Of a stretch of 64,000 nucleotides of DNA, positions 37,833-53,371 are shown one piece after another. The stretch is taken from NCBI GenBank assembly GCA_019057475.1, contig DXJO01000006.1:64001-128000 (forward strand). The letters are read 5' to 3'. A program made the translations under genes and the position numbers. The stretch comes from Candidatus Thorarchaeota archaeon. GTDB taxonomy: Archaea; Asgardarchaeota; Thorarchaeia; Thorarchaeales; Thorarchaeaceae. Within the stretch, counting starts at the first letter, position 1, and each line of letters opens with the position of its first letter. Under the pieces are notes generated by a model. It saw only the letters and a program-made list of their open reading frames with translations. It was not told where the DNA came from and searched no databases.

Positions 37833-37853
37833 ATGTTCATATTGTATTCTAAC

Positions 37854-37921: not shown

Positions 37922-38851
37922 TTACCGTTGGAGTTTCTGACTTTGCTTATGTTGACCCTTGACCACTTCGATTCTTGGATCAACAAATACGAACTTATCA
38001 TTTGCAGAAACTACATAGAGCGTCATCCCTTTCCTGAATACAAGTCCCTGCTGTAATGGTCGTGCATGGAATCTTCTGAGACCCATCTCGGTTTCATACC
38101 TTACCTCACCAAAGTCATCGCTTATGGTGGAGACTGCTTCAACTTCTTGTCCTACAATGTGTTTTGGCTCGATGCTAAAGCCTGACTCCACAAACACCTT
38201 CCCAAGTACAGTTCGTACCAAAAATACAAGCAGAGCCGCTCCGATGAACTGGAAGCAAATTTTCGCAGCAAGAGGTGCTAGCAGTCCATCATAGTACACT
38301 ATAGACCCCAGAAACCCGACACTGACAAGAGATGTTCCGATAGTGACGCCCAGTGGAGCGCCCCTTGCGGCTTCGAAGAAACCTGAGTGATCACCTGCTT
38401 CAACATCATAGTCCAGTTCATGTTCGTGGTCAGTATCATGCTCTGTGTCGTGATCAGCTTCATGGTCTGCATCGAGGTGATGCTCCATGTCATGTTCTAC
38501 ATCGTGCTCGACTTCGTGTTCAACATCTGTCTCCAACTGATGCTCTATGTCATGTTCAACATCGTGATCGTAATCATGATCGACGTCATGATCAATCTCA
38601 ACGTGTGTATCGTAGTCATGTTCAATGTCGTGTTCCATATCATGGTCATAATCGTGTTCAACATCATGCTCAATGTGATGATCCAAGTCATGTTCTGCTT
38701 CGTGGAAAACATCATGCTCATGCCCGTGTTCAGAAATTGCAGCAAAGAGTCGTCCCATCAGAAACATGCCGAAGGTGTAGAAAAGCCCCACAAGAAGTAT
38801 CCCAAATGAAATCTCACGTAGTATGATTGCTAACGGCATGAATTCTTGCAT
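37922..38851 (-). CDS. NfeD/YqiJ-like flotillin partner with long His/Asp/Glu repeat
   Basis: TM, ~115-aa His-rich loop, two TMs and a C-terminal OB-like domain (VGQEVEAV..I..DFGEVRY...G...FHAR). Lies upstream of the SPFH gene. Confidence 0.8.
   Translation of the reverse strand: MQEFMPLAIILREISFGILLVGLFYTFGMFLMGRLFAAISEHGHEHDVFHEAEHDLDHHIEHDVEHDYDHDMEHDIEHDYDTHVEIDHDVDHDYDHDVEHDIEHQLETDVEHEVEHDVEHDMEHHLDADHEADHDTEHDTDHEHELDYDVEAGDHSGFFEAARGAPLGVTIGTSLVSVGFLGSIVYYDGLLAPLAAKICFQFIGAALLVFLVRTVLGKVFVESGFSIEPKHIVGQEVEAVSTISDDFGEVRYETEMGLRRFHARPLQQGLVFRKGMTLYVVSANDKFVFVDPRIEVVKGQHKQSQKLQR
38385..38731 (-). repeat. coding tetrad repeat [DE]-H-[DE]-hydrophobic
   Basis: EHDV/EHDY/DHDM/EHDI... with 12-nt periodicity; about 29 His by manual count. 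Confidence 0.9.
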
Positions 38852-39013
38852 GTCCTTTACCCCCCGTATTCATTATGTAACAAAGCGATATAAAGTTGAG
38901 CAAGCGTTTACCTGGGTCAATGCAGATTGTGTCTTCTTCTTGCTCGAGTTCGCGCGGACCCAACATATCACATAAGAGGCGCGAATACAACCGCGGAACC
39001 GGTGGAATACGTA

Positions 39014-40036
39014 ATGCCTACGTCCATTGAACTTGTCGAACAGGCAATGCAGAATGAGGAACCGCCACGCACTCCAGTTATTCCATTAGTCGGGCTGTAT
39101 TCGAGTGTATGCTCGGGATATCCTGTCAACGACCTTCTGAGGGACGGAAACCTACAGGCGAAGTCGCAGCTAGCTGCTCTTCAATGCTTCAAGTATGATG
39201 GTGTTTTCACTTGTATGGACCTTACTGTGGAAGCTGAGGCGCTGGGTGCATCTATCGCGTTTCCGCAAGGAGATTTTCCGTATGTTAGTGATCACCCAGC
39301 AGAATCGCCTTGTGCGGTTCTTGATTTAGAGATGGCATCAATAAAAGGTGCCCGCCTGTTGACATTTGTAAATGCGACAAAACAGCTTGTGAACTGTGTG
39401 GGGCGATCGCACTTGGTTAGCACTTACATAATTGGACCATTCACACTTGCAGGACACCTCATCGGTGTTGAAAGTCTACTCGAATACGCTATCGAGGACC
39501 CAGAGTTGACCAAGAAAGTAGTCAACTACTGTCAGGAGGTGCTTGAGCCTTTGGTAGAAGCGTATATCTCCGCAGGGGCACACAATGCTGTGATTTTGGA
39601 GCCAACAGCTAGTTCGAGCATAATCTCTCCGAAGTTCTTTGAGAAATACTCCGCGCCCGACCTCTCCAGAATGGTGTCGCGCATTCATAAAGGAGGAATA
39701 AAGGCAACCATCCACATATGCGGCAATACACATCCGATATTGCACGCAATGTGCGATACGAAAGCTGATGCTCTGAGCATTGACTCTGCTGTTGATCTGA
39801 AAGAGGCAAAAGAAATAGTCAAGGGGCGTGCGACTCTCATAGGCAATGTCGATACCACTCTCATTCTGACTGCATCCAAAGAAAATGTGCAAAAAGCGGC
39901 GGAAGATTGCCTTAAGAAGGCCGCCAAAGGAGGAAGTTTCTTTCTCTCAACCGGTTGCGACATACCCCTTGAAACTCCAAATCATAATGTACACGCGCTC
40001 GTTAATGCGGCTACCGGCAACTTGACTCAGCATTAG
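39014..40036 (+). CDS. MtaA/CmuA-type methylcobamide:thiol methyltransferase (UroD fold)
   Basis: DLTVEAEALG, GPFTLA, Zn motif HICG, GNVD and STGCDIP. Probable start at 39014. Confidence 0.82.
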   Translation: MPTSIELVEQAMQNEEPPRTPVIPLVGLYSSVCSGYPVNDLLRDGNLQAKSQLAALQCFKYDGVFTCMDLTVEAEALGASIAFPQGDFPYVSDHPAESPCAVLDLEMASIKGARLLTFVNATKQLVNCVGRSHLVSTYIIGPFTLAGHLIGVESLLEYAIEDPELTKKVVNYCQEVLEPLVEAYISAGAHNAVILEPTASSSIISPKFFEKYSAPDLSRMVSRIHKGGIKATIHICGNTHPILHAMCDTKADALSIDSAVDLKEAKEIVKGRATLIGNVDTTLILTASKENVQKAAEDCLKKAAKGGSFFLSTGCDIPLETPNHNVHALVNAATGNLTQH

Positions 40037-40200
40037 GTGCTCCAATCAGAAGGTGTGAGCGTACAGAATGTGTCAGCAGCAGGAAAAAGCACCCGAAGAG
40101 TTAAGGCAAGCGGTTGTCCATTGCTAGAAGCCATTGTATTGTTTCTAAGCTAGCCTGAATGCTGAAGATTATGCGCAAGGTAATAGGTGTGAAGAAGGAA

Positions 40201-41163
40201 ATGAACAACAAGAACAAGTGGAATGAGATATACGCTGTGGAACATCCACCTCTAGTCAGCTTTGGGGAGGGCGAACTGCTAACGATTTATGATAGTTCAA
40301 GCTTTGGAGTAGCGTCCAACCACACAACCTTGAAACGGGTCTTACTCCACCGACCTTGTGAAGATCTGGAAGCCGTCAAGAAGAATCCAGTATGGTGGCT
40401 TTGGGATGGCGTGCCGGACTTAAAGAAGTCTCGCAGTGAGTGGGACTCTTTTGCGGCTATTCTAGCGAAGAACGGGGTTGAGGTGGAATTACTTGAGAAG
40501 GGGTATCAAGGGTGTGCCAAGAGCTATTTCATGCGAGACCCCGCTACAATGACCCCATGGGGCGCCATCATAAGTCGAATGGCCCTCACCCAGCGATGGG
40601 GTGAGGAGCAGCACATCGCGAAGAAACTCTGGGAAATGCATATCCCCGTCCTAATGATGGTCACAGGCCATGGCATCTTCGAAGGAGGCAACTACATCCC
40701 ACTGGATGAGCACACAGTTATCCTCGGGCGTGGTATCAGGTCCAATGACATCGGAATTCGTCAAGTCCAGAATCTGCTTGAACTCATGGATCTAGAATCG
40801 ATTATCGTTGACATCCCTGCCTATCTGGAGCACTACGGTGGCTATGTTCACGTAGATGTATGCCTGAACCCGATTGACAAGGACTTGGCGCTGGTCTATC
40901 CCCCAGGTCTTCCGTATTGGTTTCTTGAAGATCTCAGAAACCGAGGGTTTGATATGATTGAGGTCGAGAGAGAGGAGGTCTTGCGCATGGGTACAAATGT
41001 ATTGCCTCTTGGAAAAAAGAAAGTCATCCTCCCTGCGGGGAATCCGACTGTCAAGAAGCGTCTTGAGGAAGTTGGAATGAAAATCATTGAAATTAGCATG
41101 AATGAGCTGATGAAGGGCGGCGGCGGACCCCGATGCATTACTATGGAGCTTCTACGAGCTTAG
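40201..41163 (+). CDS. amidinotransferase-superfamily enzyme (short arginine deiminase/DDAH-like)
   Basis: LKRVLLHRP, YFMRDP, FEGGN, HVD and catalytic Cys in GGGGPRCITM. Confidence 0.85.
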   Translation: MNNKNKWNEIYAVEHPPLVSFGEGELLTIYDSSSFGVASNHTTLKRVLLHRPCEDLEAVKKNPVWWLWDGVPDLKKSRSEWDSFAAILAKNGVEVELLEKGYQGCAKSYFMRDPATMTPWGAIISRMALTQRWGEEQHIAKKLWEMHIPVLMMVTGHGIFEGGNYIPLDEHTVILGRGIRSNDIGIRQVQNLLELMDLESIIVDIPAYLEHYGGYVHVDVCLNPIDKDLALVYPPGLPYWFLEDLRNRGFDMIEVEREEVLRMGTNVLPLGKKKVILPAGNPTVKKRLEEVGMKIIEISMNELMKGGGGPRCITMELLRA

Positions 41164-41179
41164 GGGGCGAACATGAGAT

Positions 41180-42142
41180 ATGAACACTCTACGACCTCTC
41201 AAGGGGAAAGACTTCCTCACGCTCATGGACTATTCGAAAGAGGAAATCTTAAGGATTCTTGATCTGGCTGACGAATTGAAAGATAGACTAGCAAAAGGAG
41301 CGCCACATGAGTGTCTCTCTGGCAAAACAATAGCCATGATTTTCGAGAAACACTCCACTCGCACGCGTCTATCATTTCAGGCTGGGGCCGCACACCTGGG
41401 GCTTTCTGCTTTCTATATGGATCCAACCACCATGCAACTATCTCGCGGAGAATCACTTTCTGACACGGCAAAGACAATCGACCGATATATCGACGCACTG
41501 GTCATCCGAACATTCGAACAAGAGATTGTTGAAGACTTCGCGAAGCATATGAAGAAACCAGTCATTAACGCGTTGACTAATGATACTCATCCGATGCAGC
41601 TTCTAGCGGATTTTCAGACGATACGTGAGAAGAAGAAACGTCTGCACGATTTGAAGATAGGATACATTGGAGATGCTTGGAATATGATCCACTCTTGGGG
41701 TATCATGAGCTCCATTATTGGATTGGACATGACTTACGCGGTCCCAGAAGGATACACAGTGAAGACAAAATACAGAGATTTTATCGACAGAACCAACAGG
41801 GAAACTGGTGGCAGCTTCACCGTCACCCACGATCTCAAACAGGCCATGACGGATGTTGACATAGTCGTGGGGATAACTTTCATCAGCATGACTCGTGCCG
41901 GAATGACGGAGGATGCGAAGGCGAAGAAACTCAAAGATTTCATGCCTTATCAAATCGATTCTGAGGTCATGGGGTGGGCTAAGAAAGATGCGATATACAT
42001 GCATTGCCTGCCCGCACATCGCGGAGAGGAGGTAACCGATGAGGTCCTTGATGGTCCTCAATCAGTCGTCTTCGACGAAGCAGAAAACAGAATGCATACC
42101 GAGAAAGCCGTGCTAGCCCTGCTACTCGGCGGGGTGGATTGA
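41180..42142 (+). CDS. ornithine carbamoyltransferase-like transcarbamylase with altered acceptor site
   Basis: STRT, HPMQ, HCLPAHRG and AENR are conserved. The DxxxSMG loop is replaced by ITFISMT. Confidence 0.85.
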   Translation: MNTLRPLKGKDFLTLMDYSKEEILRILDLADELKDRLAKGAPHECLSGKTIAMIFEKHSTRTRLSFQAGAAHLGLSAFYMDPTTMQLSRGESLSDTAKTIDRYIDALVIRTFEQEIVEDFAKHMKKPVINALTNDTHPMQLLADFQTIREKKKRLHDLKIGYIGDAWNMIHSWGIMSSIIGLDMTYAVPEGYTVKTKYRDFIDRTNRETGGSFTVTHDLKQAMTDVDIVVGITFISMTRAGMTEDAKAKKLKDFMPYQIDSEVMGWAKKDAIYMHCLPAHRGEEVTDEVLDGPQSVVFDEAENRMHTEKAVLALLLGGVD

Positions 42143-42165
42143 TACGCTGTAACTCGCTTGCGATC

Positions 42166-43305
42166 CTACTTGAGTATTTTAATCATCTCGTCCAATCGGG
42201 ACAATCCCGCATTTAGGTGGTCCTCCTCGTAACCGAAGCCGATTCTTAAATGCATGGGCATTCCGAAGTGTTCACCGGGGATGATTAGCAAGCTTTTCTC
42301 TCTTAACAGACGTGTGGTCAGTTCAAGTGAAGAAACATTCAGATTGTGTCTTGGAAAGCAGATTGAAGCAGCCCTTGGCGCAACGTATTCGAAGACTTCA
42401 TTTCGTTCGTCAAGCCACTCGCGTAGAATACTCCAATGTTTCTTAACAATCCTGCTGGTCCTTTCAAGTATCTTCCTTCGGCATTTTGGTTGCAATGCTA
42501 TTGTTGCAAGTGTATCACTCAGCTTTGTTGGACATATTGTCGTGTAATCTGAATACGCCCACAAGTCTGTCACGTTGATTTTATCCGAGCACATTATCCA
42601 ACCTAGCCTGAGACCGGGAAGTCCGTAAGCTTTTGACAGGCTATTCGTCACAATGACCTTGTCGTAATAGTCGAACATCGTAGGAGTCGAGTCTCCTTCG
42701 AGTTCAGCACCTTGATAGATCTCATCTGAGACCACCCAAAGGTGGGCATCCGCCGCAATCTCGGCAATCGCTTTCAAGTATGTCGGGCCAAAGGTTGCAC
42801 CTGTCGGGTTGTTCGGGTTACAGATGGCTATCGCCATGGTCTTCTTTGATATGGCTGATTTTAGTTCCTCAAGATCCGGAATCCATTCCCCTTTTTCAAT
42901 TTTAAGGCGAAACGGACTCACGACCCCATTGAGCCCTTTGATTATTCCTGGTATCTGCATATAGTTTGGAAGCATCACCACAATCTCTTTGGCATCGTGT
43001 TCATGAAGCAAGTTCCAGATAGTGAGGAAGTTTGCCTCTGCCCCTCCATTTGTGACTAGAACATTGTCCGCGTCTGCCCCTTGATACATGCCGCTAATCG
43101 CCTCCTTTAACGGCATTGTGCCATTGGTTTGTGAGTATGCCAGTTTCGTTTCGATGAGTTCTTTTTGAGCTTCTTTGTCAGGGATAAGATCCGATATCGT
43201 AAGTGGTTCAACGCCACTCTCTGTTAGATTTATGTCTATTACGTGCTCCCACTCTGACTGCATCCGTTCGAGCTCGAAAGGCTCCAATCTCATATCCAAC
43301 ACCAT
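42166..43305 (-). CDS. class I/II PLP aminotransferase
   Basis: NPNNPTG, DEIY, SLSKAYGLPGLRLGW. Confidence 0.88.
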   Translation of the reverse strand: MVLDMRLEPFELERMQSEWEHVIDINLTESGVEPLTISDLIPDKEAQKELIETKLAYSQTNGTMPLKEAISGMYQGADADNVLVTNGGAEANFLTIWNLLHEHDAKEIVVMLPNYMQIPGIIKGLNGVVSPFRLKIEKGEWIPDLEELKSAISKKTMAIAICNPNNPTGATFGPTYLKAIAEIAADAHLWVVSDEIYQGAELEGDSTPTMFDYYDKVIVTNSLSKAYGLPGLRLGWIMCSDKINVTDLWAYSDYTTICPTKLSDTLATIALQPKCRRKILERTSRIVKKHWSILREWLDERNEVFEYVAPRAASICFPRHNLNVSSLELTTRLLREKSLLIIPGEHFGMPMHLRIGFGYEEDHLNAGLSRLDEMIKILK

Positions 43306-43349
43306 TCCATGTCCACGGGTCCAGGGCTTCTACATCAATCTTCTGTGCA

Positions 43350-44615
43350 CTACTGCAAATATCCCAGTCCTTCAATTATTATGTCGATGGCCTTATCGAT
43401 GTTTTCGTAGGTCTGAGCAAAGGATACTCGAAGAAAGCTTTCTCCTCCCGGCCCGAACCAAGCTCCTGAAACTGTCAGAACCTTAGTCGCAACAATGAGA
43501 TAGAACATTGTGACCAATGAACCCGACCTGTTTAGGTCTTCAATACTGAACAAGTGCTGAGGAAGAGATTCCAAGAAAGCTCTTCCTTTGGTTTTCAGAA
43601 ATGCCTTCATATCATCGTGATGTTTCTCTATCAATTCTCTTGCGTTGACAAACATGTAAAAGGTGCCTTGGGGACTTATAGTACTAAGAAGAGGGATTTC
43701 TTTGTTAATCCTGTTTACAAGAAGCTTCCTTCGTCTGTCATATTCCGCCAACATTGTCTTGACTGGTTCATCAGGTCCGGTGAGCGCAGCGAGTGCCGCT
43801 GCCTGCGAAGTTGTGGGCGCACAGATTGAGCTGTACTGATGGATCTTGCTGAACCCTGTGATGATTTCTTTCGGTGCTATGAGCCAGCCGAGCCTAAAGC
43901 CTGTCATTGCATGACTCTTCGAAAGGCCATTGATTGTGATAGTGCGCTCAAACATGCCGTTAATCGCTGCAGGGCTATGGACCCTTGCTCCATCATATAC
44001 CAGCTGCTCGTACAGTTCATCCGACAGGATAAGAAAGTCATGATCAGTGGCAAGGTCCGCCACCGCTGAAACTTTGTTCCTGTCCCATACTGCTCCGGTG
44101 GGATTGGTTGGTGAGCATACTATAATCATCTTAGTCTTTGGCGTGATTGCTTCTGCAAGTTTTTCCAGTGCGGGTACAAACTGGTCCTCTTCAGTAGCAG
44201 GAACAAAAACGGGTTTGCCTCCTGCAATTCGCACAATCGATTCATATGCGAAATATGAAGGGCTGGGAATAATTACTTCATCGCCTTCGCCCACGGTGGC
44301 AAGGATTGCGCCAAACACGCCGGGGCTAGTGCCCGCTGTGACGATGACTTCACTTTCGGGGTCAACCGTGAAACCGTTGTCGCGCTTTGTTTTATCAGCA
44401 ATCGCTTTCCTTAGTTCTAATGTCCCAGCGTCTGGCGAGTAATGGGTGTTTCCTGACTGTAGAGACCTCATTGCCGCTTCTATGATATGCTTCGGTGTGT
44501 TGAAGTTTGGTTCTCCAATGCCCAGATTCAGCAGTTTGTGATGCTCACCGATATGAAGCAGTAGGCCGATTCTACCAGGGGGCAGTGTTTCCAGATTCTG
44601 CGTTATCTTACCCAA
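43350..44615 (-). CDS. class I PLP aminotransferase (AspC-like) with C-terminal insertion
   Basis: GIGEP, SPTNPTG, DELY, GLSKSHAMTGFRLGW and RVSFA. Confidence 0.88.
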   Translation of the reverse strand: MGKITQNLETLPPGRIGLLLHIGEHHKLLNLGIGEPNFNTPKHIIEAAMRSLQSGNTHYSPDAGTLELRKAIADKTKRDNGFTVDPESEVIVTAGTSPGVFGAILATVGEGDEVIIPSPSYFAYESIVRIAGGKPVFVPATEEDQFVPALEKLAEAITPKTKMIIVCSPTNPTGAVWDRNKVSAVADLATDHDFLILSDELYEQLVYDGARVHSPAAINGMFERTITINGLSKSHAMTGFRLGWLIAPKEIITGFSKIHQYSSICAPTTSQAAALAALTGPDEPVKTMLAEYDRRRKLLVNRINKEIPLLSTISPQGTFYMFVNARELIEKHHDDMKAFLKTKGRAFLESLPQHLFSIEDLNRSGSLVTMFYLIVATKVLTVSGAWFGPGGESFLRVSFAQTYENIDKAIDIIIEGLGYLQ

Positions 44616-44634
44616 TTCTATTCACCCACTTTAA

Positions 44635-45357
44635 TCATAGTCCCAAGAGATTGGCCACAAACTCAGGAAAATCGAGCATTTTAAGGTCACTGCCAGCATG
44701 CTCTACCCTTTCTCTCAGATTGAACGTGCAGAATGGACAAGCTGTGGTCAATATCGTCGCCTCGGTTTCCTCAGCCTCTTGTATTCGAATCGCTGCCGCT
44801 TCGCGTGCCATCTCACGGTTCGTTGAGCGTACACCACCCCCAGCACCGCAACAGGAAGCATTTTTCCCGCTCTTGTGCATCTCCCTCAGTTCAACATTCG
44901 GGATTGCCTGCATGACTTCTCGCGGGTCGTCGTAGATGCCCATATGTCTTCCAACGTGGCAGGGGTCATGATATGTAACTGTGATTGGTTCACCTTTGAG
45001 GAATTCAATTCTGCCATCTTCAATGAGTTCTTTGAGCAGAGTTGGAAAATGGATGACCTCAAACGGGAGCTCTTCTCCTAGGATTGATGGATAATCAACT
45101 GAAATCGTTCTGAAGCAACCTGCGCAAGCTGTGACCACTCCAGTTGCTCCTGCGGCTTTTAGTACGTCCACATTGTGCCGAGCCATGTACTTGGCTTCAT
45201 CAACGTAACCTGTTCTAAGGGCAACGCTACCGCAGCACCATTCATCTTCTCCAAGAATCTTGAAGTCTACGTTTGCATGTTTGAGAACCTTGATTGTTGA
45301 TTCAGCTATGTTTGGAAGACGATATGTTGCCATACATCCAGCGAAATACACTAGCAT
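44635..45357 (-). CDS. CCG-domain Fe-S protein (GlcF/HdrD C-terminal part)
   Basis: FAGC, EWCCG, TACAGC, YHDPC, SCCGAGGG and TACPFC. Confidence 0.88.
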   Translation of the reverse strand: MLVYFAGCMATYRLPNIAESTIKVLKHANVDFKILGEDEWCCGSVALRTGYVDEAKYMARHNVDVLKAAGATGVVTACAGCFRTISVDYPSILGEELPFEVIHFPTLLKELIEDGRIEFLKGEPITVTYHDPCHVGRHMGIYDDPREVMQAIPNVELREMHKSGKNASCCGAGGGVRSTNREMAREAAAIRIQEAEETEATILTTACPFCTFNLRERVEHAGSDLKMLDFPEFVANLLGL

Positions 45358-45359
45358 AA

Positions 45360-45752
45360 CTATGCCTCCGCAAGTTCCTTCAACCTGTTTCTGGCCTTTG
45401 GATCTTCACCAAAAGGGTTGTGTGTTTTCTGCATATTCTTGACTAACTGAGCAGATACTTCGTTACCAAGGCCCCTCTTCACGAGCTCAGCGCGCGCAGC
45501 TTCGACAACTGCTGGGATGTCAAGACCGGATAGGCAAGTTGCCTGGCAATTCTTACAGGTTGTGCATTCATACATCCTCTCAGCAACTTCATCCCAGTTC
45601 AGCCATCCTTCCAGCAAAGCAAACAGAATTGTCATCTTGCCTTTCGCACTGTTTGATTCCAAGTTTGTCTGCTTGTAAATGGGGCAATTGGATTGGCATA
45701 GCCCGCAACTGACGCATTCCATGATAATATGTAGGTGTTCCTTCAATGGCAT
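45360..45752 (-). CDS. 2x[4Fe-4S] protein (GlcF N-terminal part)
   Basis: CVSCGLCQSNCP and CTTCKNCQATC; HNPFG. Confidence 0.85.
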   Translation of the reverse strand: MPLKEHLHIIMECVSCGLCQSNCPIYKQTNLESNSAKGKMTILFALLEGWLNWDEVAERMYECTTCKNCQATCLSGLDIPAVVEAARAELVKRGLGNEVSAQLVKNMQKTHNPFGEDPKARNRLKELAEA

Positions 45753-45758
45753 TGCTTT

Positions 45759-47216
45759 CTACTCCGCCATCTCTTCATCAGTCACGTATTCCTTGTAGAT
45801 GAACCCAACATCCGAATCACGTTCCTCAGTGTCCAGCGCCATCTTGCCTGGATTAAGAATTCCATTGGGGTCTAGCAATTTCTTGATTCTTCTATCGAGC
45901 TCGAGTTTGTCTTGGCCAATAGCCATCCGAACATAGGGATTCTTGACATAGCCGAATCCGTGCTCCGCTGTAACCACGCCGCCTATGCCCACGACATATT
46001 CTAGAATTTCCTGTTCGGCCTTCTTCATCGCGACCCAATGTTCTCTATTCCTTGCATCAATTAGGACTGCAGGATGAATTATCCCAATTCCCGCATGGCA
46101 GAAGACGGCGGCAATGATGCCATGAGACCGGATTATCCGACCGATCTCCCTGATCGCTTCAGCTTGTTTAGACAGTGGAACACAAGGATCTGCCGCGGCA
46201 AAACCGAACTCTCTGTATCCGGGATGCACCTTCACTATTGCTGTGTCTATCTCCAATCTTGGAGCCCAGAGTTTGTTGGTTGTTTCTTCATCCCGTGCTA
46301 TGACGACATTCTCGCCGCCATGCTCCTTGAGGATTCTCTCCATCACCATCAGCTTGCGCTGAAGATTCTCTTCATCGAAGCCTTGGACATCTCCAACGAA
46401 GTTGCCCTCACAAGTTGGGAATCCGAGATTCATGACATCACTGATTGTTTTCACGGTTTTGCCATCGGTCGCCTCAAAGGTTCCCGCATCAATTCCCGAC
46501 ATAGTGATCGCCAAAGAAGCATTCATCAGCCCATCAAGATTCTGGAAGAAGGCACCGATGGTTGCCTCAACTGGCATTCTAGGTACAAGTTTCAGGGTTG
46601 CTTCGGTGATTATTCCCAGGGTACCCTCAGACCCAGCGAAGAGTGCAGCTAGGTTGTATCCCATGTTGTAGCGAGGTGCTCTTGTTCCCAGTCTAAGGAT
46701 TGTCCCATCAACCAAAACTACTTCCATACCTTGAATCCAAGCTCCAACTCGACCATGCTTGTAGGCATGGTGACCGTTTGAGTCCGAGGCGAGGATTCCA
46801 CCGATGGTCGCGGCGTTATGACTTCCGACGTCATGAGGAAAGGTCAGTCCTCTTCTCTCCAGCTCGTGTTCGAATGTTTCGTATCTGACTCCAGGCTGAA
46901 CAATGGCAATCATGTCTTCGTTGCTAATCTCAAGGATCTTGTTCATGCGACTCAGGTCGAGAAGTATTCCTCCTCTAACGGCAAGCGACGACCCCTGAAA
47001 TGATGCACCGCCGCCTCGGGGCGTGACTGGTACTCCCTTTTCATTGAGCAGAATAAGTATCTCCACGACTTGCTCAGTAGTTGTTGGATAGACCACCGCA
47101 TCGGGAATTGAGAAATACGGTGTGAGGTCCCGAGAATAAGCAACTCGATCGACCTTGGCCGTTATAACATTATTTTCGCCAACGATTTGCCTAAGCTGTT
47201 CAATTGTATCTGACAC
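45759..47216 (-). CDS. FAD-linked oxidoreductase, GlcD/D-2-hydroxyacid dehydrogenase family
   Basis: TPRGGGAS, ATIGG, GSEGTLGIITEA, AEHGFG and DPNGILNPGK. Confidence 0.88.
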   Translation of the reverse strand: MSDTIEQLRQIVGENNVITAKVDRVAYSRDLTPYFSIPDAVVYPTTTEQVVEILILLNEKGVPVTPRGGGASFQGSSLAVRGGILLDLSRMNKILEISNEDMIAIVQPGVRYETFEHELERRGLTFPHDVGSHNAATIGGILASDSNGHHAYKHGRVGAWIQGMEVVLVDGTILRLGTRAPRYNMGYNLAALFAGSEGTLGIITEATLKLVPRMPVEATIGAFFQNLDGLMNASLAITMSGIDAGTFEATDGKTVKTISDVMNLGFPTCEGNFVGDVQGFDEENLQRKLMVMERILKEHGGENVVIARDEETTNKLWAPRLEIDTAIVKVHPGYREFGFAAADPCVPLSKQAEAIREIGRIIRSHGIIAAVFCHAGIGIIHPAVLIDARNREHWVAMKKAEQEILEYVVGIGGVVTAEHGFGYVKNPYVRMAIGQDKLELDRRIKKLLDPNGILNPGKMALDTEERDSDVGFIYKEYVTDEEMAE

Positions 47217-47232
47217 GTTTGGGGCACCTTCT

Positions 47233-48327
47233 CTACCGTTTGACTCTCTTTTTCTTCTTCGTAATCCTACGGATAAGCTTGTAGATGATAAAGAGAATTA
47301 GCAAGAGTCCAACAATAGCGCCATAACCAAGCAGTAAATTCTGGTTCAAGAACCCTCCAGTCCAGTCCAAAACCGGCAGACCCAACAAGAACTGGTTGAG
47401 ATCCTGTAGAATAACGTCTAGACCGATTGTGACGAGGAAGCTACTCACAATGGTCAGCATCGTCGATACGATAATCGAGAGAGATACCCAAGTGATTGAT
47501 GTGGGCTCAAAGTACATCAAATACATCATAAAGCTGAAGAACCCAACAACAATAATTGTGCCCACGTAGTCTCTCGCCTTGAACGAGAGATCCTCGACAT
47601 TGGTCCGGTCTTCACGAGCTCCAAATGCTCTTGCATTGATGGCCACCTCAAGGTCCATTGCGCGGCGAAACATCAGAAGAAGGAGTGGCGTTATGATGGG
47701 GACGTACGCTCTCCTGAGCTTCTGATACATGTTGGCAGCATCAATGTCAAACCCCCTGATTTTTTGAGCCTCTATGATAGCGTCCATGCTTTCCTGAACC
47801 AGAGGGACAAACCTCATAGCTGTGATGAACATGAAAATAATTTTCTGAGGAACGCGTATCTTCGCAAGTGCACCGCTAATCTTGGTCATTGGGGAAGTCA
47901 TTGTGAAGATGGGTACGACAGTGACTACAGCAATGACCCGGAGCATAACAAGCAGACCATACATTATTCCGCCGATTGTTATCTCACCATAATTGACCAT
48001 AACATTTCCATGCTCGTCGGGCCAGGGCAAATCAAACAGCTGCAGGATTACTGTGCTATCGCCAAACCTGTAGGTTAGTCCTTGCACCAAGAACAGAAAC
48101 ACGAAGAGCATACTCAACAGCTTTAGCAGGAACCCCAGGCTGCTAAGCTCGATTTTTCCAACAAGCCACCATAGAGAGGCGAACGATATCCAAATTAGGA
48201 GTATGCTGATATGCTCGATGCTCGTGCATTGGACAACTAAGATGAGCGCCAAAAACATAAGGAGCAGCTTCACAAGAGGACTCATTCTATCCAGAGGTGT
48301 GTCCTTTTTGACGTACTCGAACGCCAT
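47233..48327 (-). CDS. ecfT: ECF transporter T component
   Basis: RFVP...AQKIRG and ARAF motifs; C-terminal TM extension. Confidence 0.87.
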   Translation of the reverse strand: MAFEYVKKDTPLDRMSPLVKLLLMFLALILVVQCTSIEHISILLIWISFASLWWLVGKIELSSLGFLLKLLSMLFVFLFLVQGLTYRFGDSTVILQLFDLPWPDEHGNVMVNYGEITIGGIMYGLLVMLRVIAVVTVVPIFTMTSPMTKISGALAKIRVPQKIIFMFITAMRFVPLVQESMDAIIEAQKIRGFDIDAANMYQKLRRAYVPIITPLLLLMFRRAMDLEVAINARAFGAREDRTNVEDLSFKARDYVGTIIVVGFFSFMMYLMYFEPTSITWVSLSIIVSTMLTIVSSFLVTIGLDVILQDLNQFLLGLPVLDWTGGFLNQNLLLGYGAIVGLLLILFIIYKLIRRITKKKKRVKR

Positions 48328-48329
48328 GC

Positions 48330-50081
48330 CTAGGCACCTCCTGCCTTGAAACAGGCAAGCATTTCATCGACAGTCACCAAGTTCTTTTCTATGCCGTAGC
48401 CTTCAAGCTTCTGAGAGAGCTGTATGATTTGAGGAGGCTTTAGAAATGCCTTATCCATGACCTCATGCATACTGAAGACTTCACGCTTTGGACCATCAGC
48501 GATAATTATCCCCTCGACCATAACAACGAGCCGATCTGCATACTGAGCAACAAGGTCCATATCGTGCGAGATCATGACGATTGTCTTTCCCTTCTCTCGC
48601 ATGCGTGTGGCAATTTGACACAGTGCGTGACGCCCTTGGTAATCCTGTGCAGTAGTTGGTTCATCCAGAATCAAGATATCAGGATCCATTGCAATCCCAG
48701 CTGCAGCTGCTACCTTCCGGCGGTCGCCAAAGCTCAATCTGAATGGAAAGATGTCCCGCATATCCTCCAGACCCGCTTCTTTCAAACTCTCTTCCACTCG
48801 CCGGGCTATTTCGTCCTCAGGGAGGCCCAAATTCCTCAAACCGAACTCGAGCTCCTTCTCTACACTTATGCAAAAGAGCTGGTAGTCAGGATTCTGCAAT
48901 ATCAATGCAATGCTCTTTGCAATGCTGCCCGTGGTTAATTCCGATACATCTTCACCCTCGACCTTTGTCACTCCTTCGGTGGCCTCTAGAAGTCCCAGAA
49001 AATGTTTTACCAGGGTTGTTTTGCCGCTCCCATTCTGGCCAACAATCGCCACAATCTCACCTCGCTTGATTTTGAGATTAATACCCCTGAGGGCAGTTAC
49101 TGGTATTCTTGCCGGATATACGAAAGTAACATTCTCAACTTCAAGCACAGTTTCGTCAGACATCGGTGGCGCAGGAAGCGGTTCCGTCCATTCCACTTGG
49201 AAAAATCCTTCGTCCAATAGTTCCTTGAGCATAGAGTAGGACTCGTCCAGGGTCAGCGGTAAGCCCCCGATCCGCTCTAATCTCTCTTGGAACCCTGGAA
49301 TTTTCTTGGCCATCTTGGCGGCGAGTACGGTTACCGCAGGCGGGTTTACACCAACACTATCTAACAGCTCAGTCTGTGCAAAGACATCCTTTGGGGTACC
49401 TAAGGCCATGACACGACCATCACTTAGAACTAGAACTTTTGACGCCAGTCTGGCAATCTCGTCTGTCTTATGACTGGTGATGAGAATCGTCATGTCTTCT
49501 GTGTTTGCCAGCTGCTTTATGACATCGAATACCTCAGTTGTGCCGATTGGGTCCAGCTGGCTTGTTGGCTCATCTAGAATTAAGACCTCCGGGAGCATCG
49601 TAAGTCCCGCAGCTAATGCAACTCGCTGTTTCTGGCCGCCACTCAACTCTTTGGGCTTTCGTTCTTCAAGGCCGTCAATACCACAGACTTTGGCCGCCCA
49701 AGCTGCACGCCGAAGTATCTCATCCCGTTCGACTGCAAGATTCGCCGGACCAAAGAATAACTCTGAAGCAACATTCGTAGTTGTGAACTGAGACTCTGGA
49801 TCTTGGAGAACCATCGATACTTTGCTTGCGAGCTGAATAATGGGTGTTTCCCACGGATCCAGACCACAAAGGCTGATCGACCCCTTTTCGACTCCGGTGT
49901 AGACCGTGGGAATTATCCCATTCAGATGGAAACATAGTGTTGTTTTCCCCGCACCATTCGCTCCGAGAATTCCAAGTATCTCGCCCTTCTTGACTTCGAA
50001 ACTAACTTCATGCAAAGCAAGAGGACCACGCTCATAGGTGAAAGTGACATTATTCACTTTTGCTGTCGAGTATTCAGTCAT
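48330..50081 (-). CDS. ecfA: ECF transporter fused double ATPase
   Basis: Two Walker A motifs (GANGAGKTT, GQNGSGKTT), QDPESQ/QNPDYQ Q-helices, LSGGQ/LSFGD. Probable start at 50081. Confidence 0.9.
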   Translation of the reverse strand: MTEYSTAKVNNVTFTYERGPLALHEVSFEVKKGEILGILGANGAGKTTLCFHLNGIIPTVYTGVEKGSISLCGLDPWETPIIQLASKVSMVLQDPESQFTTTNVASELFFGPANLAVERDEILRRAAWAAKVCGIDGLEERKPKELSGGQKQRVALAAGLTMLPEVLILDEPTSQLDPIGTTEVFDVIKQLANTEDMTILITSHKTDEIARLASKVLVLSDGRVMALGTPKDVFAQTELLDSVGVNPPAVTVLAAKMAKKIPGFQERLERIGGLPLTLDESYSMLKELLDEGFFQVEWTEPLPAPPMSDETVLEVENVTFVYPARIPVTALRGINLKIKRGEIVAIVGQNGSGKTTLVKHFLGLLEATEGVTKVEGEDVSELTTGSIAKSIALILQNPDYQLFCISVEKELEFGLRNLGLPEDEIARRVEESLKEAGLEDMRDIFPFRLSFGDRRKVAAAAGIAMDPDILILDEPTTAQDYQGRHALCQIATRMREKGKTIVMISHDMDLVAQYADRLVVMVEGIIIADGPKREVFSMHEVMDKAFLKPPQIIQLSQKLEGYGIEKNLVTVDEMLACFKAGGA

Positions 50082-50240
50082 TATCGCAGGCTCCACCAGA
50101 TAATCGCGCATTCCTTCTATAAGATATATCTCTTCCTTTGCAAATGTCTGTCAAAGGCAATCAGTCACTCTATTCGACTTACCAACGATGTATGCAAATC
50201 AGGAGCATGAAGTTGGCTTATGACCTCAGCTGATAAGGGC

Positions 50241-50280
50241 AAGAAAAGAAAATATGGCACTGGCCAGAAAAGGCCAGTGC
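50241..50280 (-). terminator. perfect 9-bp hairpin plus U-tract after the ECF S gene
   Basis: GCACTGGCC-agaaaa-GGCCAGTGC followed on the minus strand by TTTTCTTTTCTT. Confidence 0.7.
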
Positions 50281-50293
50281 TCGTTGTTTCGCA

Positions 50294-51076
50294 TCACCAA
50301 ATGGCATCTGGAATACGGGGCAAGCCGCTTCTCTTAAGCGCCTCTACAATCGGTATTGCGATGATGGTCGTAAGGATGGCTAGCACAGGCCACCACACAG
50401 TGTAGCCTATGTTCGTCCCGGTCGCAAGTGCCATTGGATATGTAAAGATGTACCAGTACGGCGCTGCCCACCAGTAATAGAACGCCATGAAACCCATTAG
50501 AAACACGAGGAAGACGCCAAGATACTGCATTTTGGGATCATCCCCTCGGCACCATTCTGGAATCAGTTTCCTACCTATTGGCGTAAGCGTTATGATTAGC
50601 CACGGAAGCCAGAAGACAGGTGTTGTCGCAAAAAACGTAAGAGTCGCAGGTTCCCCAGGTATTGTGGGCCAGACATATGGGAAGACAATGAACATCACTC
50701 CCGTGATAACTAGGGCGACAACTGTCAATATCCAAGCAATGATCTTGTTTGTGTTGACAAACAAAGCGGTAAACACCGCAGGCATTATTCCTGTGAGCAG
50801 CACATCCAAAAGGCCTAATGGGAACATGGCAGGACTCACGAACATGCCAATAATCCCTCCGATAATTGCGGCTATTATCCCGCCAATCGGGCCAAGTATA
50901 AGCGGACCGATGGCAGTGAACACAACTGATAGAGGTACAAAACCTCCACCTCCGAAGTATGGGAATATCGGGACCAGGGCAAGTGCGCCGTTTATCGCAC
51001 CGTAGACTGCAATAAAGGCAATATTGGCTCCTCCGTATCCCATCGGGGCTCTCTCTCTCGTTCGTTCTTCTGTCAC
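50294..51076 (-). CDS. ECF transporter substrate-specific S component
   Basis: NIAFIAVYGA...PIFP...LILGPIGGIIAAIIG. GTG start at 51076 behind GGAGG; upstream of ecfA/ecfT. Confidence 0.8.
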   Translation of the reverse strand: MTEERTRERAPMGYGGANIAFIAVYGAINGALALVPIFPYFGGGGFVPLSVVFTAIGPLILGPIGGIIAAIIGGIIGMFVSPAMFPLGLLDVLLTGIMPAVFTALFVNTNKIIAWILTVVALVITGVMFIVFPYVWPTIPGEPATLTFFATTPVFWLPWLIITLTPIGRKLIPEWCRGDDPKMQYLGVFLVFLMGFMAFYYWWAAPYWYIFTYPMALATGTNIGYTVWWPVLAILTTIIAIPIVEALKRSGLPRIPDAIW

Positions 51077-51470
51077 GCGAATTTCCTCCCAGTAGGTTAT
51101 TAGCCTACTAGTAAAAACGATACTCATAAAGCTGAACCGACTTATATCAGTTGGCTAATCGCGAGCCAATAATACAGCAGCATTGTTCAGTTACGAATAG
51201 AAGCATTCTGCTTAACTGACGCTCGTTTTCTGGCTAGTTCACGGCATACAGACAGGTTGAGCTAGCGAATGGTCATTAAGGTCCTATTGGCATTCAAAGC
51301 TGCGTTTTCAACCATTGTTTTGCAGTGTGCCCCATTCTTTCTAATTTATGACAGGAAAAGGGCCTCAGGTTCGAAAAGCACGACTCGGAATGTTCAAATC
51401 GTGGAATCGATGAAGTAGTTCCCATTGTTACCTACGATTTAATGCGGCCATTCTCCTATGGTGAAACAAT

Positions 51471-52121
51471 ATGGGAACCAAAAAAATCCTTGAGATTCTC
51501 AAGCAAACCATTATTGATGGAAACCGAAAGGCCACTCCTGCGCTCGCGCAGAAGGCAATTGATATGGAAGTCCCCCCCTATACCATTGTGACAGATGCAT
51601 GCTCACCGGCAATGGCTGAGGTTGGAGAGCTCTATCAGCAAGGTGAGTACTTCGTCCCTGAGATTCTAATGTCAGCCAAGGCATTTGAGTCTGCAATGGC
51701 CATTATTGAACCACTTCTCAAGAGCAAGAAGTTGGAGCTCGCTGGCACCGTAGTCCTTGGAGTCTGCGAGGGTGACATACACTCAATCGGAAAGAACTTG
51801 GTTGCCACCATGTTGGAGGCGGGCGGGTTCAACGTCATCGACTTGGGTACAGATGTACCCGCGAAGAAGTTCATCGCAACCGCCATCAAGAGCAACGCTG
51901 ACATTATTGGGGTTTCTGCTCTGATGACCACATCGATGATTGGTATGAAAGACATCGTACATATGGTGAAAGAAGAAGGACTGGGCGTGAAAGTCATGGT
52001 GGGTGGAGGACCAGTCAACCAAGAGTACGCAGATTCGATTGGGGCAAATGCATACGGTCGGGATGCGATGGATGCCGTAAGAGTGGCGAGGAATCTCATG
52101 GAAGACATAAGGGGGTCGTAA
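51471..52121 (+). CDS. methyltransferase cognate corrinoid protein (MtbC/MttC-like)
   Basis: Cap domain (GEYFVPEIL) and DIHSIGKNLV B12 motif; SALMTT and VGGGP. Confidence 0.92.
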   Translation: MGTKKILEILKQTIIDGNRKATPALAQKAIDMEVPPYTIVTDACSPAMAEVGELYQQGEYFVPEILMSAKAFESAMAIIEPLLKSKKLELAGTVVLGVCEGDIHSIGKNLVATMLEAGGFNVIDLGTDVPAKKFIATAIKSNADIIGVSALMTTSMIGMKDIVHMVKEEGLGVKVMVGGGPVNQEYADSIGANAYGRDAMDAVRVARNLMEDIRGS

Positions 52122-52125
52122 GTCT

Positions 52126-53145
52126 ATGCAATCTGGCAAGGAACTCATTGACACTGCTTTGTATGGCGGCATTCCCGAGAGGATTCCAGTATCCATAGTA
52201 TCAACAGCTTGGATCTTCAATAACTACGGCCAGGACTTGGCATTGGTTGATCGCGACGGAGAGCAGATGGCAAAATCCTGGCTCGCGTTCAATAGGGACT
52301 TCGGAGCGGACTCCGTGTGCCCAATGCTTAGCCCTATGCTTATCCCCGAATATTATGGATCTGAACTGAGAATACCGCAAGGCGGTTTTCCGCTTCTCGT
52401 CAAGCCGGCAATTCAGGAGCCAGCGGATCTTGACAAACTTGAAGCGTTTGATCCAGCTGGAGCGCCTCGAGTTGCGGCCGCTGTCGATTGTGTGAAAAGA
52501 CTAGTCAAGGAGATAGGTTCGACCACATTCATCTGGTTGGTGTGCATAGGGCCCATTTCAACCCTCTCCCGCCTAATGGACACTCAGCTAATCATGGAGT
52601 GTCTTGTGGAGGACCCCGGGTTTATTGAGCGTGCTTTCGAGTTCAGCGTTGAGGTTTTCAAAACAACAATGGAGCCTCTCATTGAAAGCGGCGTAGATGC
52701 AATTGATTTTTCTGACCCCGTCGCGTCTCCTGATATGGTTTCGCCACGAATGTACAAACGATTCTTCTGGAAACATGACAGAGAGGTCGCGAAATGGATT
52801 CAATCCAAAGGTGTTCATGCCATCTACCACATCTGTGGAGATGTACTTAGAATAATCGAGGAGATGCAAAACACAACAGCAAGGGGGTTGAGTGTTGACG
52901 CGCCATTAGACCTTGCACAGGCAAGAGATAGGGTTCCTGACGCAACACTGATTGGAAATGTGGACCCAGCTAACATCATCATGAATGGCACACCCGCTAC
53001 AGTGACAGCCGCTTGCGAGGCGGCAATGATACAGGGTGGATCTAATGGTAGGTTCATCTTGGCTCCAGGCTGCGATGTGCCGCCAACATCTCCATCTCGG
53101 AATATCGATGCGATGATTCGTGCAGCCAGGCAATTCAGACACTAA
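52126..53145 (+). CDS. MtaA/CmuA-type methyltransferase (UroD fold)
   Basis: HICG, GNVDP and APGCD; directly downstream of the corrinoid gene. Confidence 0.82.
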   Translation: MQSGKELIDTALYGGIPERIPVSIVSTAWIFNNYGQDLALVDRDGEQMAKSWLAFNRDFGADSVCPMLSPMLIPEYYGSELRIPQGGFPLLVKPAIQEPADLDKLEAFDPAGAPRVAAAVDCVKRLVKEIGSTTFIWLVCIGPISTLSRLMDTQLIMECLVEDPGFIERAFEFSVEVFKTTMEPLIESGVDAIDFSDPVASPDMVSPRMYKRFFWKHDREVAKWIQSKGVHAIYHICGDVLRIIEEMQNTTARGLSVDAPLDLAQARDRVPDATLIGNVDPANIIMNGTPATVTAACEAAMIQGGSNGRFILAPGCDVPPTSPSRNIDAMIRAARQFRH

Positions 53146-53371
53146 TCCAATCCAGTTTCAGTGTTTGAATGGGTTCTTGGACCGATGCATCACTTCTAGC
53201 ATTCGCTAGTAGTTGTATGTGATTGATTATGTGCCATTGTCGTCCCTACGTCACCTAATCTCTCCTCTTGCACAATCAAAGATAACAGCCAGGATTGAAG
53301 TCGATGCCGCTATTACGATCGCCATAATTGCACGCAGCATACTGAAGCTCCAGCCTAGTTTTCCGGCTGTT

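Follow-up and report, generated by a model that had tools for sequence, protein, structure and literature searches.

The locus described here lies in a window of 64,000 nucleotides from a Candidatus Thorarchaeota archaeon (assembly GCA_019057475.1, contig DXJO01000006.1, positions 64,001 to 128,000 of the forward strand), and positions given without a contig refer to this window. From 38.9 to 53.1 kb the list of open reading frames (ORFs) contains thirteen ORFs in three transcription units, which combine a deiminase-like enzyme of the GME superfamily and a transcarbamylase similar to ornithine transcarbamylase (OTC) with an energy-coupling factor (ECF) importer, a GlcD-like dehydrogenase and its iron-sulfur proteins, two aminotransferases (AT1 and AT2), a corrinoid protein, and two methyltransferase-like proteins (MtaA1 and MtaA2). 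The first unit, on the + strand, consists of MtaA1, the deiminase-like gene, and the OTC-like gene; the second, on the - strand, reads ECF-S, ECF-AA, ECF-T, GlcD, Fer4, CCG, AT2, and AT1, with one gap of 182 bp followed by gaps of 2-44 bp; and the third, on the + strand and divergent from ECF-S, contains the corrinoid gene and MtaA2. The window proteins were assigned to families with Pfam and NCBIfam, using the curated NCBIfam cut-offs, and both the ORFs and these matches agree with every family that a first-pass annotation, made from the letters alone, had placed here:

39014..40036, + strand: MtaA1, methyltransferase-like protein of the URO-D/MtaA-CmuA family (PF01208, 230 bits; TIGR01463, 189 against a cut-off of 235)
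40159..41163, + strand: deiminase-like protein, GME superfamily, K/RC subtype (PF02274 and PF19420)
41180..42142, + strand: OTC-like transcarbamylase, I-type (OTCace_N and OTCace)
42166..43305, - strand: AT1, class I/II pyridoxal phosphate (PLP) enzyme related to PRK07324/GntC/VioD (Pfam/NCBIfam; PDB 3op7, 8fft, 4m2j)
43350..44615, - strand: AT2, class I aminotransferase similar to aspartate (AspAT) and aromatic aminotransferases (PF00155, 221 bits; PDB 1gd9, 1dju)
44635..45357, - strand: CCG-domain iron-sulfur protein of the HdrD/TfrB/GlcF C-terminal type (PF02754 twice; best NCBIfam match TfrB, below cut-off)
45360..45752, - strand: small 2x[4Fe-4S] protein (Fer4) of the GlcF N-terminal type (PF13183)
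45759..47216, - strand: GlcD-like FAD D-2-hydroxy-acid dehydrogenase (PF01565, FAD_binding_4, and PF02913, FAD-oxidase_C; TIGR00387, 335 against a cut-off of 568)
47233..48327, - strand: ECF-T, CbiQ-type (PF02361, residues 10-240)
48330..50111, - strand: fused double ECF ATPase, A-A' (TIGR04521 and TIGR04520 above cut-off, two domains)
50294..51127, - strand: putative ECF-S, 277 aa, polytopic (ECF-S-like features, conserved adjacency)
51471..52121, + strand: corrinoid (B12-binding) methyl-carrier protein (PF02607 and PF02310; TIGR02370, 210.9 against a cut-off of 215.3)
52126..53145, + strand: MtaA2, methyltransferase-like protein of the URO-D/MtaA-CmuA family (PF01208, 179 bits; TIGR01463, 158, below cut-off)

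In the following, G000 is the window's own genome, C-numbers are its contigs, and the other G and L labels are the other genomes and contig loci compared. The three motif deviations that had drawn attention to this region are all present, namely GITFISMT for TDVWxSMG in the transcarbamylase, FEGGN in the deiminase-like protein, and HAGIGIIH in the dehydrogenase.

The deiminase-like and the OTC-like gene occur in strict association. The OTC-like gene directly follows the deiminase gene in all 12 of the contigs that have downstream sequence, and the I-type transcarbamylase occurs in 8 of 400 Asgard genomes, 8 of 8 being deiminase-positive, with a ninth deiminase-positive genome in which the OTC-like gene is cut by the contig end. 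The deiminase-like protein is 334 aa long, which is the size of dimethylarginine dimethylaminohydrolase (DDAH), whereas ArcA has about 410 aa and a helical insertion domain, and it scores far under every NCBIfam cut-off for arginine deiminase (ADI) and DDAH (90 bits against 489 for arcA, TIGR01078). Its AlphaFold2 (AF2) model (pLDDT 90.6) has the GME fold and matches DDAH with a target-normalised TM-score (TMt) of 0.90, the N-terminal part of ArgZ (ArgZ-N) with a TMt of 0.86, and ADI with only about 0.6; DDAH and ArgZ-N are thus among the closest structural matches, yet at about 22% identity, and in terms of query coverage the nitrohydrolase NnhA ranks first (TMq 0.81). The catalytic triad C326/H231/E175 and the guanidinium-binding D127 are invariant in the alignments of the deiminase family, and R146 and R194 align, with equal spacing, with R185/R243 of ADI and R85/R132 of DDAH, which we take, from the published structures, to be the arginines that bind the alpha-carboxylate. 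Six residues before the guanidinium-binding Asp, where ADI has Asn160 and DDAH has Asp60, both presumably binders of the alpha-amino group, the protein has K121, and this Lys is kept in all the Thorarchaeota orthologs as well as in the relatives in L095, L128, and L146.

The FEGGN segment, which the first-pass annotation had counted among the active-site deviations, is not special to this protein, being common to the relatives retrieved; in fact, the patterns with which relatives were scanned contained FEGGN, so that FEGGN itself is no evidence, and the Lys and the Arg-Cys signature lay outside these patterns. Paralogues of 33-37% identity in other Thorarchaeota stand in unrelated contexts and were set aside. 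The orthologs start about 14 residues later than the ORF listed here, so translation may in fact begin at Met15 (about 40201), which concerns positions 40159-40200 of the window. In one genus the deiminase-like gene is tandemly duplicated, with about 70% identity between the copies (G086:C1:880713-882702, G094:C6, L093:7148-9136).

The OTC-like protein is about 50% identical to the OTC of P. furiosus (1pvv) and, when aligned with it, keeps the carbamoyl-phosphate motifs HSTRTR and HPMQ and the HCLP loop (MHCLPAHRGEE), which presumably holds the delta-amino end of ornithine. GDGNN of the P. furiosus enzyme corresponds to GDAWN, and TDVWASMG corresponds to GITFISMT, with the change of Asp to Ile and of SMG to SMT. 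In established OTC structures the alpha-amino group of ornithine is bound by the Asp of the DxxxSMG motif (Asp231 in E. coli); Ile or Val is found in its place in all 15 I-type sequences, which form a monophyletic clade (support 1.0) with the signature GD[AV]WNM and G[IV]TF[IVT]SM[TQR]R, and the nearest non-I-type transcarbamylases (N-type, mostly from Bathyarchaeia) have Asn there. The assignments as putrescine transcarbamylase, as N-acetylornithine transcarbamylase (AOTC), and as YgeW are ruled out on score (281 bits against a cut-off of 500 for putrescine carbamoyltransferase, and 148 bits against the N-acetylornithine carbamoyltransferase model). A canonical OTC (GDSNN, DTFFSMG) is encoded on C21 of the same genome and pyrB on C18. 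A third type of transcarbamylase, with HCLP but no SMG loop (W-G/T-x-L-K), is encoded at C3:44176-45207; this type is widespread beside deiminase-like genes of a His-Cys type in Bathyarchaeia-type contigs (L055, L121, L140) and looks like another uncharacterised pairing.

The loss of the alpha-amino binder in two consecutive enzymes that both keep the residues for chain length and carboxylate points to a substrate without a free alpha-amino group. An ordinary ADI pathway, with arginine fermentation through a short ADI and a catabolic OTC, an unlinked carbamate kinase, and unrelated operons around the pair, would agree with the intact catalytic residues of both enzymes, with the carbamate kinase encoded in the genome, with the fact that no canonical ADI was detected elsewhere in it, and with the transcarbamylase scores above the NCBIfam OTC cut-offs (NF001986, 374 against 306; TIGR00658, 362 against 281), models that do not weigh the single Asp. 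This explanation is nevertheless very unlikely considering that the Asp is lost throughout the I-type clade and kept in the other OTC of the genome, that the deiminase remains so far below the arcA cut-off and carries Lys in place of the Asn of ADI or the Asp of DDAH, and that the neighbours of the pair are conserved and not random. The first-pass proposal that the pair differs from ADI and OTC is therefore upheld by the residue lost in both and by the canonical OTC elsewhere. The same annotation had listed the lack of a carbamate kinase in the window; the gene is indeed unlinked to the cluster, but the genome encodes one at C38:18097-19020, whose score is above the cut-off (TIGR00746, 365.7 against 358.25 bits), so that the formation of ATP from carbamoyl phosphate is possible.

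The distribution of the genes among Thorarchaeota demonstrates that the locus is composite, made of a conserved core and an accessory guanidino module. The core comprises ECF-S/AA/T, the GlcD-like dehydrogenase, and the 4Fe-4S and CCG proteins; AT2 is usually present as well, and the MtaA-like, corrinoid, and MtaA-like genes often are. Among the 86 genomes of the window's Thorarchaeota family, ECF-S is found in 22, MtaA1-like genes in 29, and the deiminase in 9, the deiminase orthologs (67-93% identity) being spread over four genera; most of the ECF-S-positive genomes are devoid of any guanidino enzyme. The locus of a congener, G005, is fully syntenic with that of the window, and G000, G005, and, in another order, G084 have all thirteen families together; twelve are found in G057, in the order MtaA1 | corrinoid, MtaA2 | CCG, Fer4, GlcD | class-III aminotransferase, deiminase, OTC-like | AT2, ECF-T, AA, S, and further orders occur in G079, in G082, and in the metagenome contigs L091-L093. 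The position of the deiminase module, within the core or next to it, varies (G000/G005, G057, G084, G079, G082, L091, L093), and the core with AT2 occurs without deiminase and transcarbamylase in G075, G064, G017, G100, and G071, four of which carry MtaA1, the corrinoid gene, and MtaA2, with only a fragment of MtaA1 in G071. G024 and G011 have a minimal unit of ECF and GlcD/Fer4/CCG genes, and within one genus the module is present at one and the same locus in G057 and absent in G075 and G064. The expectation that the neighbourhood would be conserved is thus confirmed, as the gene set recurs in other Thorarchaeota in differing orders, far beyond chance, whereas the idea of one island for one methylated guanidino substrate is not, the core being commoner without a guanidino enzyme than with one.

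Outside this family, a different Asgard family, here f32, has an ECF-S 47% identical to that of the window, in the arrangement DDAH-like | GlcD, Fer4, CCG | ornithine cyclodeaminase (OCD) | ECF-T, AA, S | class-I aminotransferase | alpha/beta-hydrolase, LarA | EamA. The GME enzyme of f32 retains the DDAH-type Asp, and its clusters contain neither a transcarbamylase nor a methyltransferase. In the f32 contig L086 an IS605 OrfB/TnpB gene and a C2H2 zinc-finger protein gene flank the cluster (1244-3053 and 19321-19929), with a gelsolin-repeat protein just beyond. Among non-Asgard deiminases of the K/RC type, those of L146 and L128 stand beside an N-type transcarbamylase, a class-III aminotransferase, and a CoA-transferase of the AcetylCoA_hydro family, L146 having in addition an aldehyde:ferredoxin oxidoreductase and an ABC importer and no GlcD; those of L107, L120, and L096 stand beside an M20 hydrolase, EtfAB, and a GlcD-like dehydrogenase. 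M20 deacylase-like genes flank the K/RC-type deiminases of L096, L107, L112, and L128, and saccharopine-dehydrogenase-like genes are present in L107. A separate observation regards gut Bacillota, including Lachnospiraceae (L054, L056, L058-L061, L123, L125, L136), in which three to five tandem paralogues belonging to this short deiminase-like family occur with an ABC transporter and a class-III aminotransferase.

The dehydrogenase of the core has the mouse D-lactate dehydrogenase (8jdc) as best PDB match and is characterized by the variant motif H-x-G-[IL]-G-I-I-H, here HAGIGIIH, with an intact His/His/Glu site; both features are conserved in all the ECF-linked GlcD orthologs of the Thorarchaeota family and of f32, and the site corresponds to the metal ligands in the structures of D2HGDH and LDHD. 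The CCG gene always adjoins the Fer4 and GlcD genes, its product scores higher against TfrB than against GlcF, and no GlcE is encoded in the cluster. The split GlcF described in the first-pass annotation is real, since Fer4 and CCG are two separate ORFs in every ortholog and are thus not the outcome of a frameshift. AT2 belongs to the core in most loci. AT1, on the other hand, accompanies the deiminase module (G000, G005, G084, G086, L090, L093), a class-III aminotransferase similar to acetylornithine and GABA aminotransferases lies directly upstream of the deiminase in nine loci, and an OCD/mu-crystallin gene adjoins the OTC-like gene in L029 and L093. A LarA-type nickel 2-hydroxy-acid racemase is found in four Thorarchaeota loci and an EamA permease in six; rarer neighbours are PEPCK, a PALP enzyme similar to beta-hydroxyaspartate/threonine dehydratases, and a CN-hydrolase. 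With PEPCK, a LarA similar to malate racemase, and a PALP enzyme similar to beta-hydroxyaspartate dehydratase as neighbours, the core may act on C4-dicarboxylates such as malate, oxaloacetate, and aspartate.

The putative S component has no match in Pfam or NCBIfam; it is polytopic and hydrophobic, its ESM-Atlas neighbours are ECF-S-like clusters (score 0.97), and its orthologs are always beside the ECF-AA/T genes. An importer for metals (CbiM/NikM) was considered and rejected, as there is no CbiM-like S component and the language-model neighbours are ECF-S-like, and a B12 importer (CbrT-like) serving the corrinoid protein is not favoured, the ECF genes staying with GlcD/Fer4/CCG where the methyltransferases are absent. 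An Rfam scan of positions 37500-54000 gave zero matches at E-values up to 1 and hence no hint to the ligand from a riboswitch. ECF-T is 364 aa long and, beyond the CbiQ domain (residues 10-240), has a C-terminal extension of about 120 aa without family match.

The reading preferred here, to which somewhat less than an even chance is given, is that of a variant of the ADI pathway for a compound with the arginine skeleton but without a free alpha-amino group, feeding a core for 2-hydroxy, 2-oxo, and amino acids. The gene identities, the conservation of the substitutions, the co-occurrence, the composite architecture, and the carbamate kinase and canonical OTC elsewhere in the genome are observations; the class of substrate, the direction of the flux, and the link between the modules are inferred. 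In this scheme the dedicated ECF importer would bring in a 2-hydroxy acid, and the GlcD-like, 4Fe-4S, and CCG proteins together with AT2 would interconvert 2-hydroxy acid, 2-oxo acid, and amino acid, with the LarA-type racemase and the EamA permease joining the core in sister genomes. In the module, the deiminase-like enzyme would hydrolyse the guanidino group to a ureido group, the OTC-like enzyme would phosphorolyse the latter to carbamoyl phosphate and a delta-amine, and the carbamate kinase of the genome would make ATP from carbamoyl phosphate; AT1 is part of the module, as are, elsewhere, the class-III omega-aminotransferase and OCD. That a GME enzyme is found again and again beside LarA, OCD, class-I aminotransferases, and a D-2-hydroxy-acid dehydrogenase suggests a 2-hydroxy or 2-oxo acid of the arginine skeleton, and the residues that line the predicted active sites make 2-oxoarginine, formed by AT1 or AT2, and 2-hydroxy-5-guanidinovalerate (argininic acid) the most likely substrates, with 5-guanidinovalerate as a close alternative. 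Removal of the guanidino group would, in Thorarchaeota, precede the stage at which the alpha-position bears an amino group, which would fit the Lys-type deiminase and the transcarbamylase without Asp; in f32 it would follow transamination, which would fit the Asp-type enzyme and OCD. Among the three candidates offered by the first-pass annotation, the 2-hydroxy/2-oxo analogue of arginine is the best fit.

The loss of the alpha-amino binder alone would be explained most simply by a des-amino arginine, and in this case the deiminase, the transcarbamylase, and the class-III aminotransferase would turn 5-guanidinovalerate or 4-guanidinobutyrate into an omega-amino acid and carbamoyl phosphate, the ECF, GlcD, AT2, and methyltransferase genes being mere neighbours. 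Such a route would parallel that of agmatine deiminase and putrescine transcarbamylase and would suit the contexts of L146 and L128, with their N-type transcarbamylase, class-III aminotransferase, and CoA-transferase and, in L146, no GlcD, as well as G086, which has the module apart from GlcD. It is considered unlikely, as the module is repeatedly found inside the ECF/GlcD/AT2 cluster in Thorarchaeota, f32 and three non-Asgard loci again pair a GME enzyme with a GlcD-like dehydrogenase, and the module is accompanied by AT1 and OCD, both of which require an amino or oxo group at position 2.

A blocked rather than absent alpha-amino group would be expected if the substrate were an N-alpha-substituted arginine, such as an N-acyl-arginine or an opine of the octopine type, with the deiminase and the transcarbamylase acting on the substituted form, the class-III enzyme as an acyl-ornithine aminotransferase, and the flavoprotein cleaving or oxidising the substituent. 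The combination of a GME enzyme and a class-III aminotransferase acting on an N-acyl-arginine is known from AstB and AstC; the best NCBIfam match of the class-III enzyme is the acetylornithine-aminotransferase family, the Lys of the deiminase could bind an extra carboxylate or carbonyl, and the M20 deacylase-like and saccharopine-dehydrogenase-like genes of the non-Asgard loci named above would agree with it. However, the Thorarchaeota clusters are without acyltransferase, deacylase, and opine dehydrogenase, LarA and a D-2-hydroxy-acid dehydrogenase with intact metal site indicate a true 2-hydroxy acid, and the transcarbamylase is not of the knotted type of AOTC and of the N-succinylornithine enzyme (SOTC), as its low score against the N-acetylornithine carbamoyltransferase model also indicates, so that an N-substituted substrate has a slim chance.

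The corrinoid protein and the two MtaA-like proteins form a trio whose role is treated separately. The ORF of MtaA1 opens at 38927 and its likely start is Met30 at 39014, the orthologs starting near residue 30; its best PDB match is MtaA (4ay7). The zinc motif HxC...C (HICG, GCD) is kept in MtaA1, in MtaA2, and in all their orthologs, and the DxHxxG motif of the corrinoid protein reads GDIHSIG. MtaA2 always follows the corrinoid gene, and MtaA1 opens the transcription unit of the deiminase in G000, G005, G084, G086, and L093. In at least eight genomes the three genes are linked to the core, and in G084 and L093 they enclose the deiminase module; f32 and several of the core loci are without them. 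Family scans of the cluster proteins gave no gene of MtmB/MtbB/MttB type, MtaB type, or MtrH type and no activase, and the window's genome has three MtrH-like and two RACo genes elsewhere, on other contigs. In archaeal methoxydotrophy, as described in M. shengliensis, the second methyltransferase (MT2), MtoA, is MtrH-like, and only the first (MT1) is related to MtaA/CmuA (PMC8630106). A second corrinoid gene, 39% identical, lies beside a RACo-type activase and an MtrH-like gene at C40:104913-108096; this Mto-like methyl-transfer locus may be a source of the MT2 and the activase that the cluster lacks. In G071, whose cluster is otherwise without the trio, a 69-aa remnant of MtaA1 lies beside AT2 (L079:2839-3045), which suggests a recent loss of the methyltransferase module.

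The first-pass annotation had read the thirteen genes as serving one methylated guanidino compound, for instance methylarginine or creatine, in a single pathway: the ECF system would import it, the corrinoid system would take its methyl group, and the deiminase, the transcarbamylase, the aminotransferases, and GlcD would dismantle it. The position of MtaA1 at the head of the deiminase unit in five loci, the corrinoid gene and MtaA2 flanking this unit in two of them, and the co-location of all thirteen families in three genomes and of twelve in a fourth speak for such a connection; nevertheless it is judged quite improbable. In particular, at least four genomes have core and methyltransferases without deiminase or transcarbamylase, the f32 clusters have a guanidino enzyme and no methyltransferases, and the zinc site is typical of thiol or O-/S-methyl chemistry, with no MtmB/MtbB/MttB in the cluster. 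Methylarginine is disfavoured by this Zn/thiolate type of the MtaA-like pair and by the lack in the deiminase of the alpha-amino binder to be expected for methylarginine, and creatine by the carboxylate-Arg spacing and the HCLP and SM loops, which correspond to the length of arginine and ornithine and oppose a short creatine or sarcosine skeleton, and by the omega-aminotransferase and OCD as neighbours.

The motifs of the two methyltransferases suggest O- or S-methyl chemistry rather than the demethylation of N-methyl guanidines or amines, and the trio appears as a Thorarchaeota-specific add-on whose substrate need not be the guanidino compound. A lead for the trio is a methionine analogue, 2-hydroxy-4-methylthiobutyrate, with AT2 and the CN-hydrolase as MtnE/MtnU-like enzymes, its basis being only the CN-hydrolase in two loci and the zinc motifs. 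Alternatively, the whole cluster could be one pathway for an arginine-skeleton 2-hydroxy acid methylated on O or S, which would be imported by the ECF system, give its methyl group via the corrinoid protein to the Wood-Ljungdahl pathway, yield ATP via carbamoyl phosphate, and have its skeleton oxidised by the flavoprotein and CCG protein; one osmolyte-like compound would then provide an Asgard archaeon with energy in methyl, reducing, and phosphoryl form, a prospect that is highly doubtful.

Several points weigh against the arginine-analogue pathway proposed above. The methyltransferase trio is left unexplained by it, and this analysis documents no natural origin for argininic acid or 2-oxoarginine in sediments. 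The roles of the residues in both enzymes are assigned by sequence alignment and from published structures of ADI, DDAH, and OTC; the OTC-like protein, being above the OTC cut-offs, may be a true OTC with an odd loop, and the N-type clade, which is also without Asp, may be the working OTC of its hosts. The module of G086 is about 0.8 Mb from the GlcD ortholog and no GlcD ortholog was detected in G079, which has ECF, AT2, and the module, so that the coupling of the module to the dehydrogenase is not obligatory. Moreover, the rearranged gene orders could derive from one ancestral cluster, in which case the loci are not independent events, and the window's own genome has its class-III aminotransferase ortholog on another contig (C26) and is without OCD and without a close LarA.

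Among known systems, the proposed pathway is closest in kind to the ADI pathway (ArcA, catabolic OTC ArcB, and ArcC), with which it shares a GME hydrolase directly upstream of an OTC-family transcarbamylase, a carbamate kinase in the genome, and the predicted chemistry from guanidino to ureido group, carbamoyl phosphate, and ATP. It differs in Lys and Ile at the alpha-amino-binding positions, in the unlinked carbamate kinase, and in the absence of an ArcD antiporter, in place of which the cluster has an ECF importer and, elsewhere, EamA. Agmatine deiminase and putrescine transcarbamylase are likewise an ADI-type route retuned, with a specialised OTC paralogue, to an arginine derivative lacking one alpha substituent; agmatine deiminase, however, belongs to another GME family (PF04371), and the SM carboxylate loop kept by the OTC-like enzyme, unlike in the putrescine transcarbamylase route, indicates that the substrate retains its carboxylate. 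DDAH differs in Asp60, which has no equivalent in the Thorarchaeota enzyme. The DDAH-like and OCD genes at the ECF/GlcD unit of f32 mirror the domain pair of ArgZ/AgrE (arginine dihydrolase and ornithine cyclodeaminase), whereas the coupling of the Thorarchaeota deiminase to a transcarbamylase argues for a ureido product and not for full dihydrolysis as in ArgZ.

The arginine succinyltransferase (AST) pathway, with AstB and AstC, also uses a GME enzyme and a class-III aminotransferase on an alpha-blocked arginine, and the arginine transaminase (ATA) pathway (AruH/AruI) also starts from the transamination of arginine to 2-oxoarginine; in contrast to both, the cluster has no succinyltransferase, 2-oxoarginine decarboxylase, or guanidinobutyrase, and the proposed route would conserve energy via carbamoyl phosphate, as neither AST nor ATA does. 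The dehydrogenase unit resembles LarA with GlcDEF, LDHD, or LctD-EtfAB in having a GlcD-family flavoprotein with intact His/His/Glu, iron-sulfur and CCG partners, and LarA neighbours in sister genomes, and is distinguished by the lack of GlcE, the GlcF split in two, the H-x-G-[IL]-G-I-I-H motif, NCBIfam scores all below cut-off, and its fixed association with a dedicated ECF importer. As in MtaABC, MtsAB, MtpCA, and MtoABCD, the corrinoid protein is flanked by MtaA/CmuA-family proteins with the zinc motif of MtaA, but both methyltransferases of the window are of the URO-D type, and an MT1 of MtaB/MttB/MtmB type, an MT2 of MtrH type, and an activase are not in the cluster but elsewhere in the genome.

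The locus would thus extend a known kind of pathway, that of the ADI and agmatine deiminase type, by a variant not previously described in the literature found; no paper on such a pathway was retrieved with searches on Thorarchaeota corrinoid/MtaA proteins, on ADI, OTC, and carbamate kinase in Asgard archaea, on argininic acid and guanidinovalerate, and on guanidinobutyrate deiminase. If the proposal is correct, Asgard archaea would have a third kind of deiminase/transcarbamylase pathway, besides the arginine and agmatine routes, which through related modules would extend to Bathyarchaeia-type sediment archaea and some bacteria and would generate ATP by substrate-level phosphorylation from an arginine derivative other than a standard amino acid. 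The names "ornithine carbamoyltransferase" and "dimethylarginine dimethylaminohydrolase family protein" would then be wrong in these genomes, a new transcarbamylase specificity would be recognisable by a simple signature, and a substrate class would be available for an orphan ECF importer and a GlcD subfamily, with relevance to the way in which sediment archaea starved of energy subsist on detrital nitrogen compounds.

Beyond the thirteen genes, two adjacent paralogous ORFs on the - strand (53372-55408 and 55484-57427; 678 and 647 aa) have no Pfam match; their sole signal is a faint similarity to beta-propeller lipoproteins, and more paralogues are present on C24, C56, and C40.

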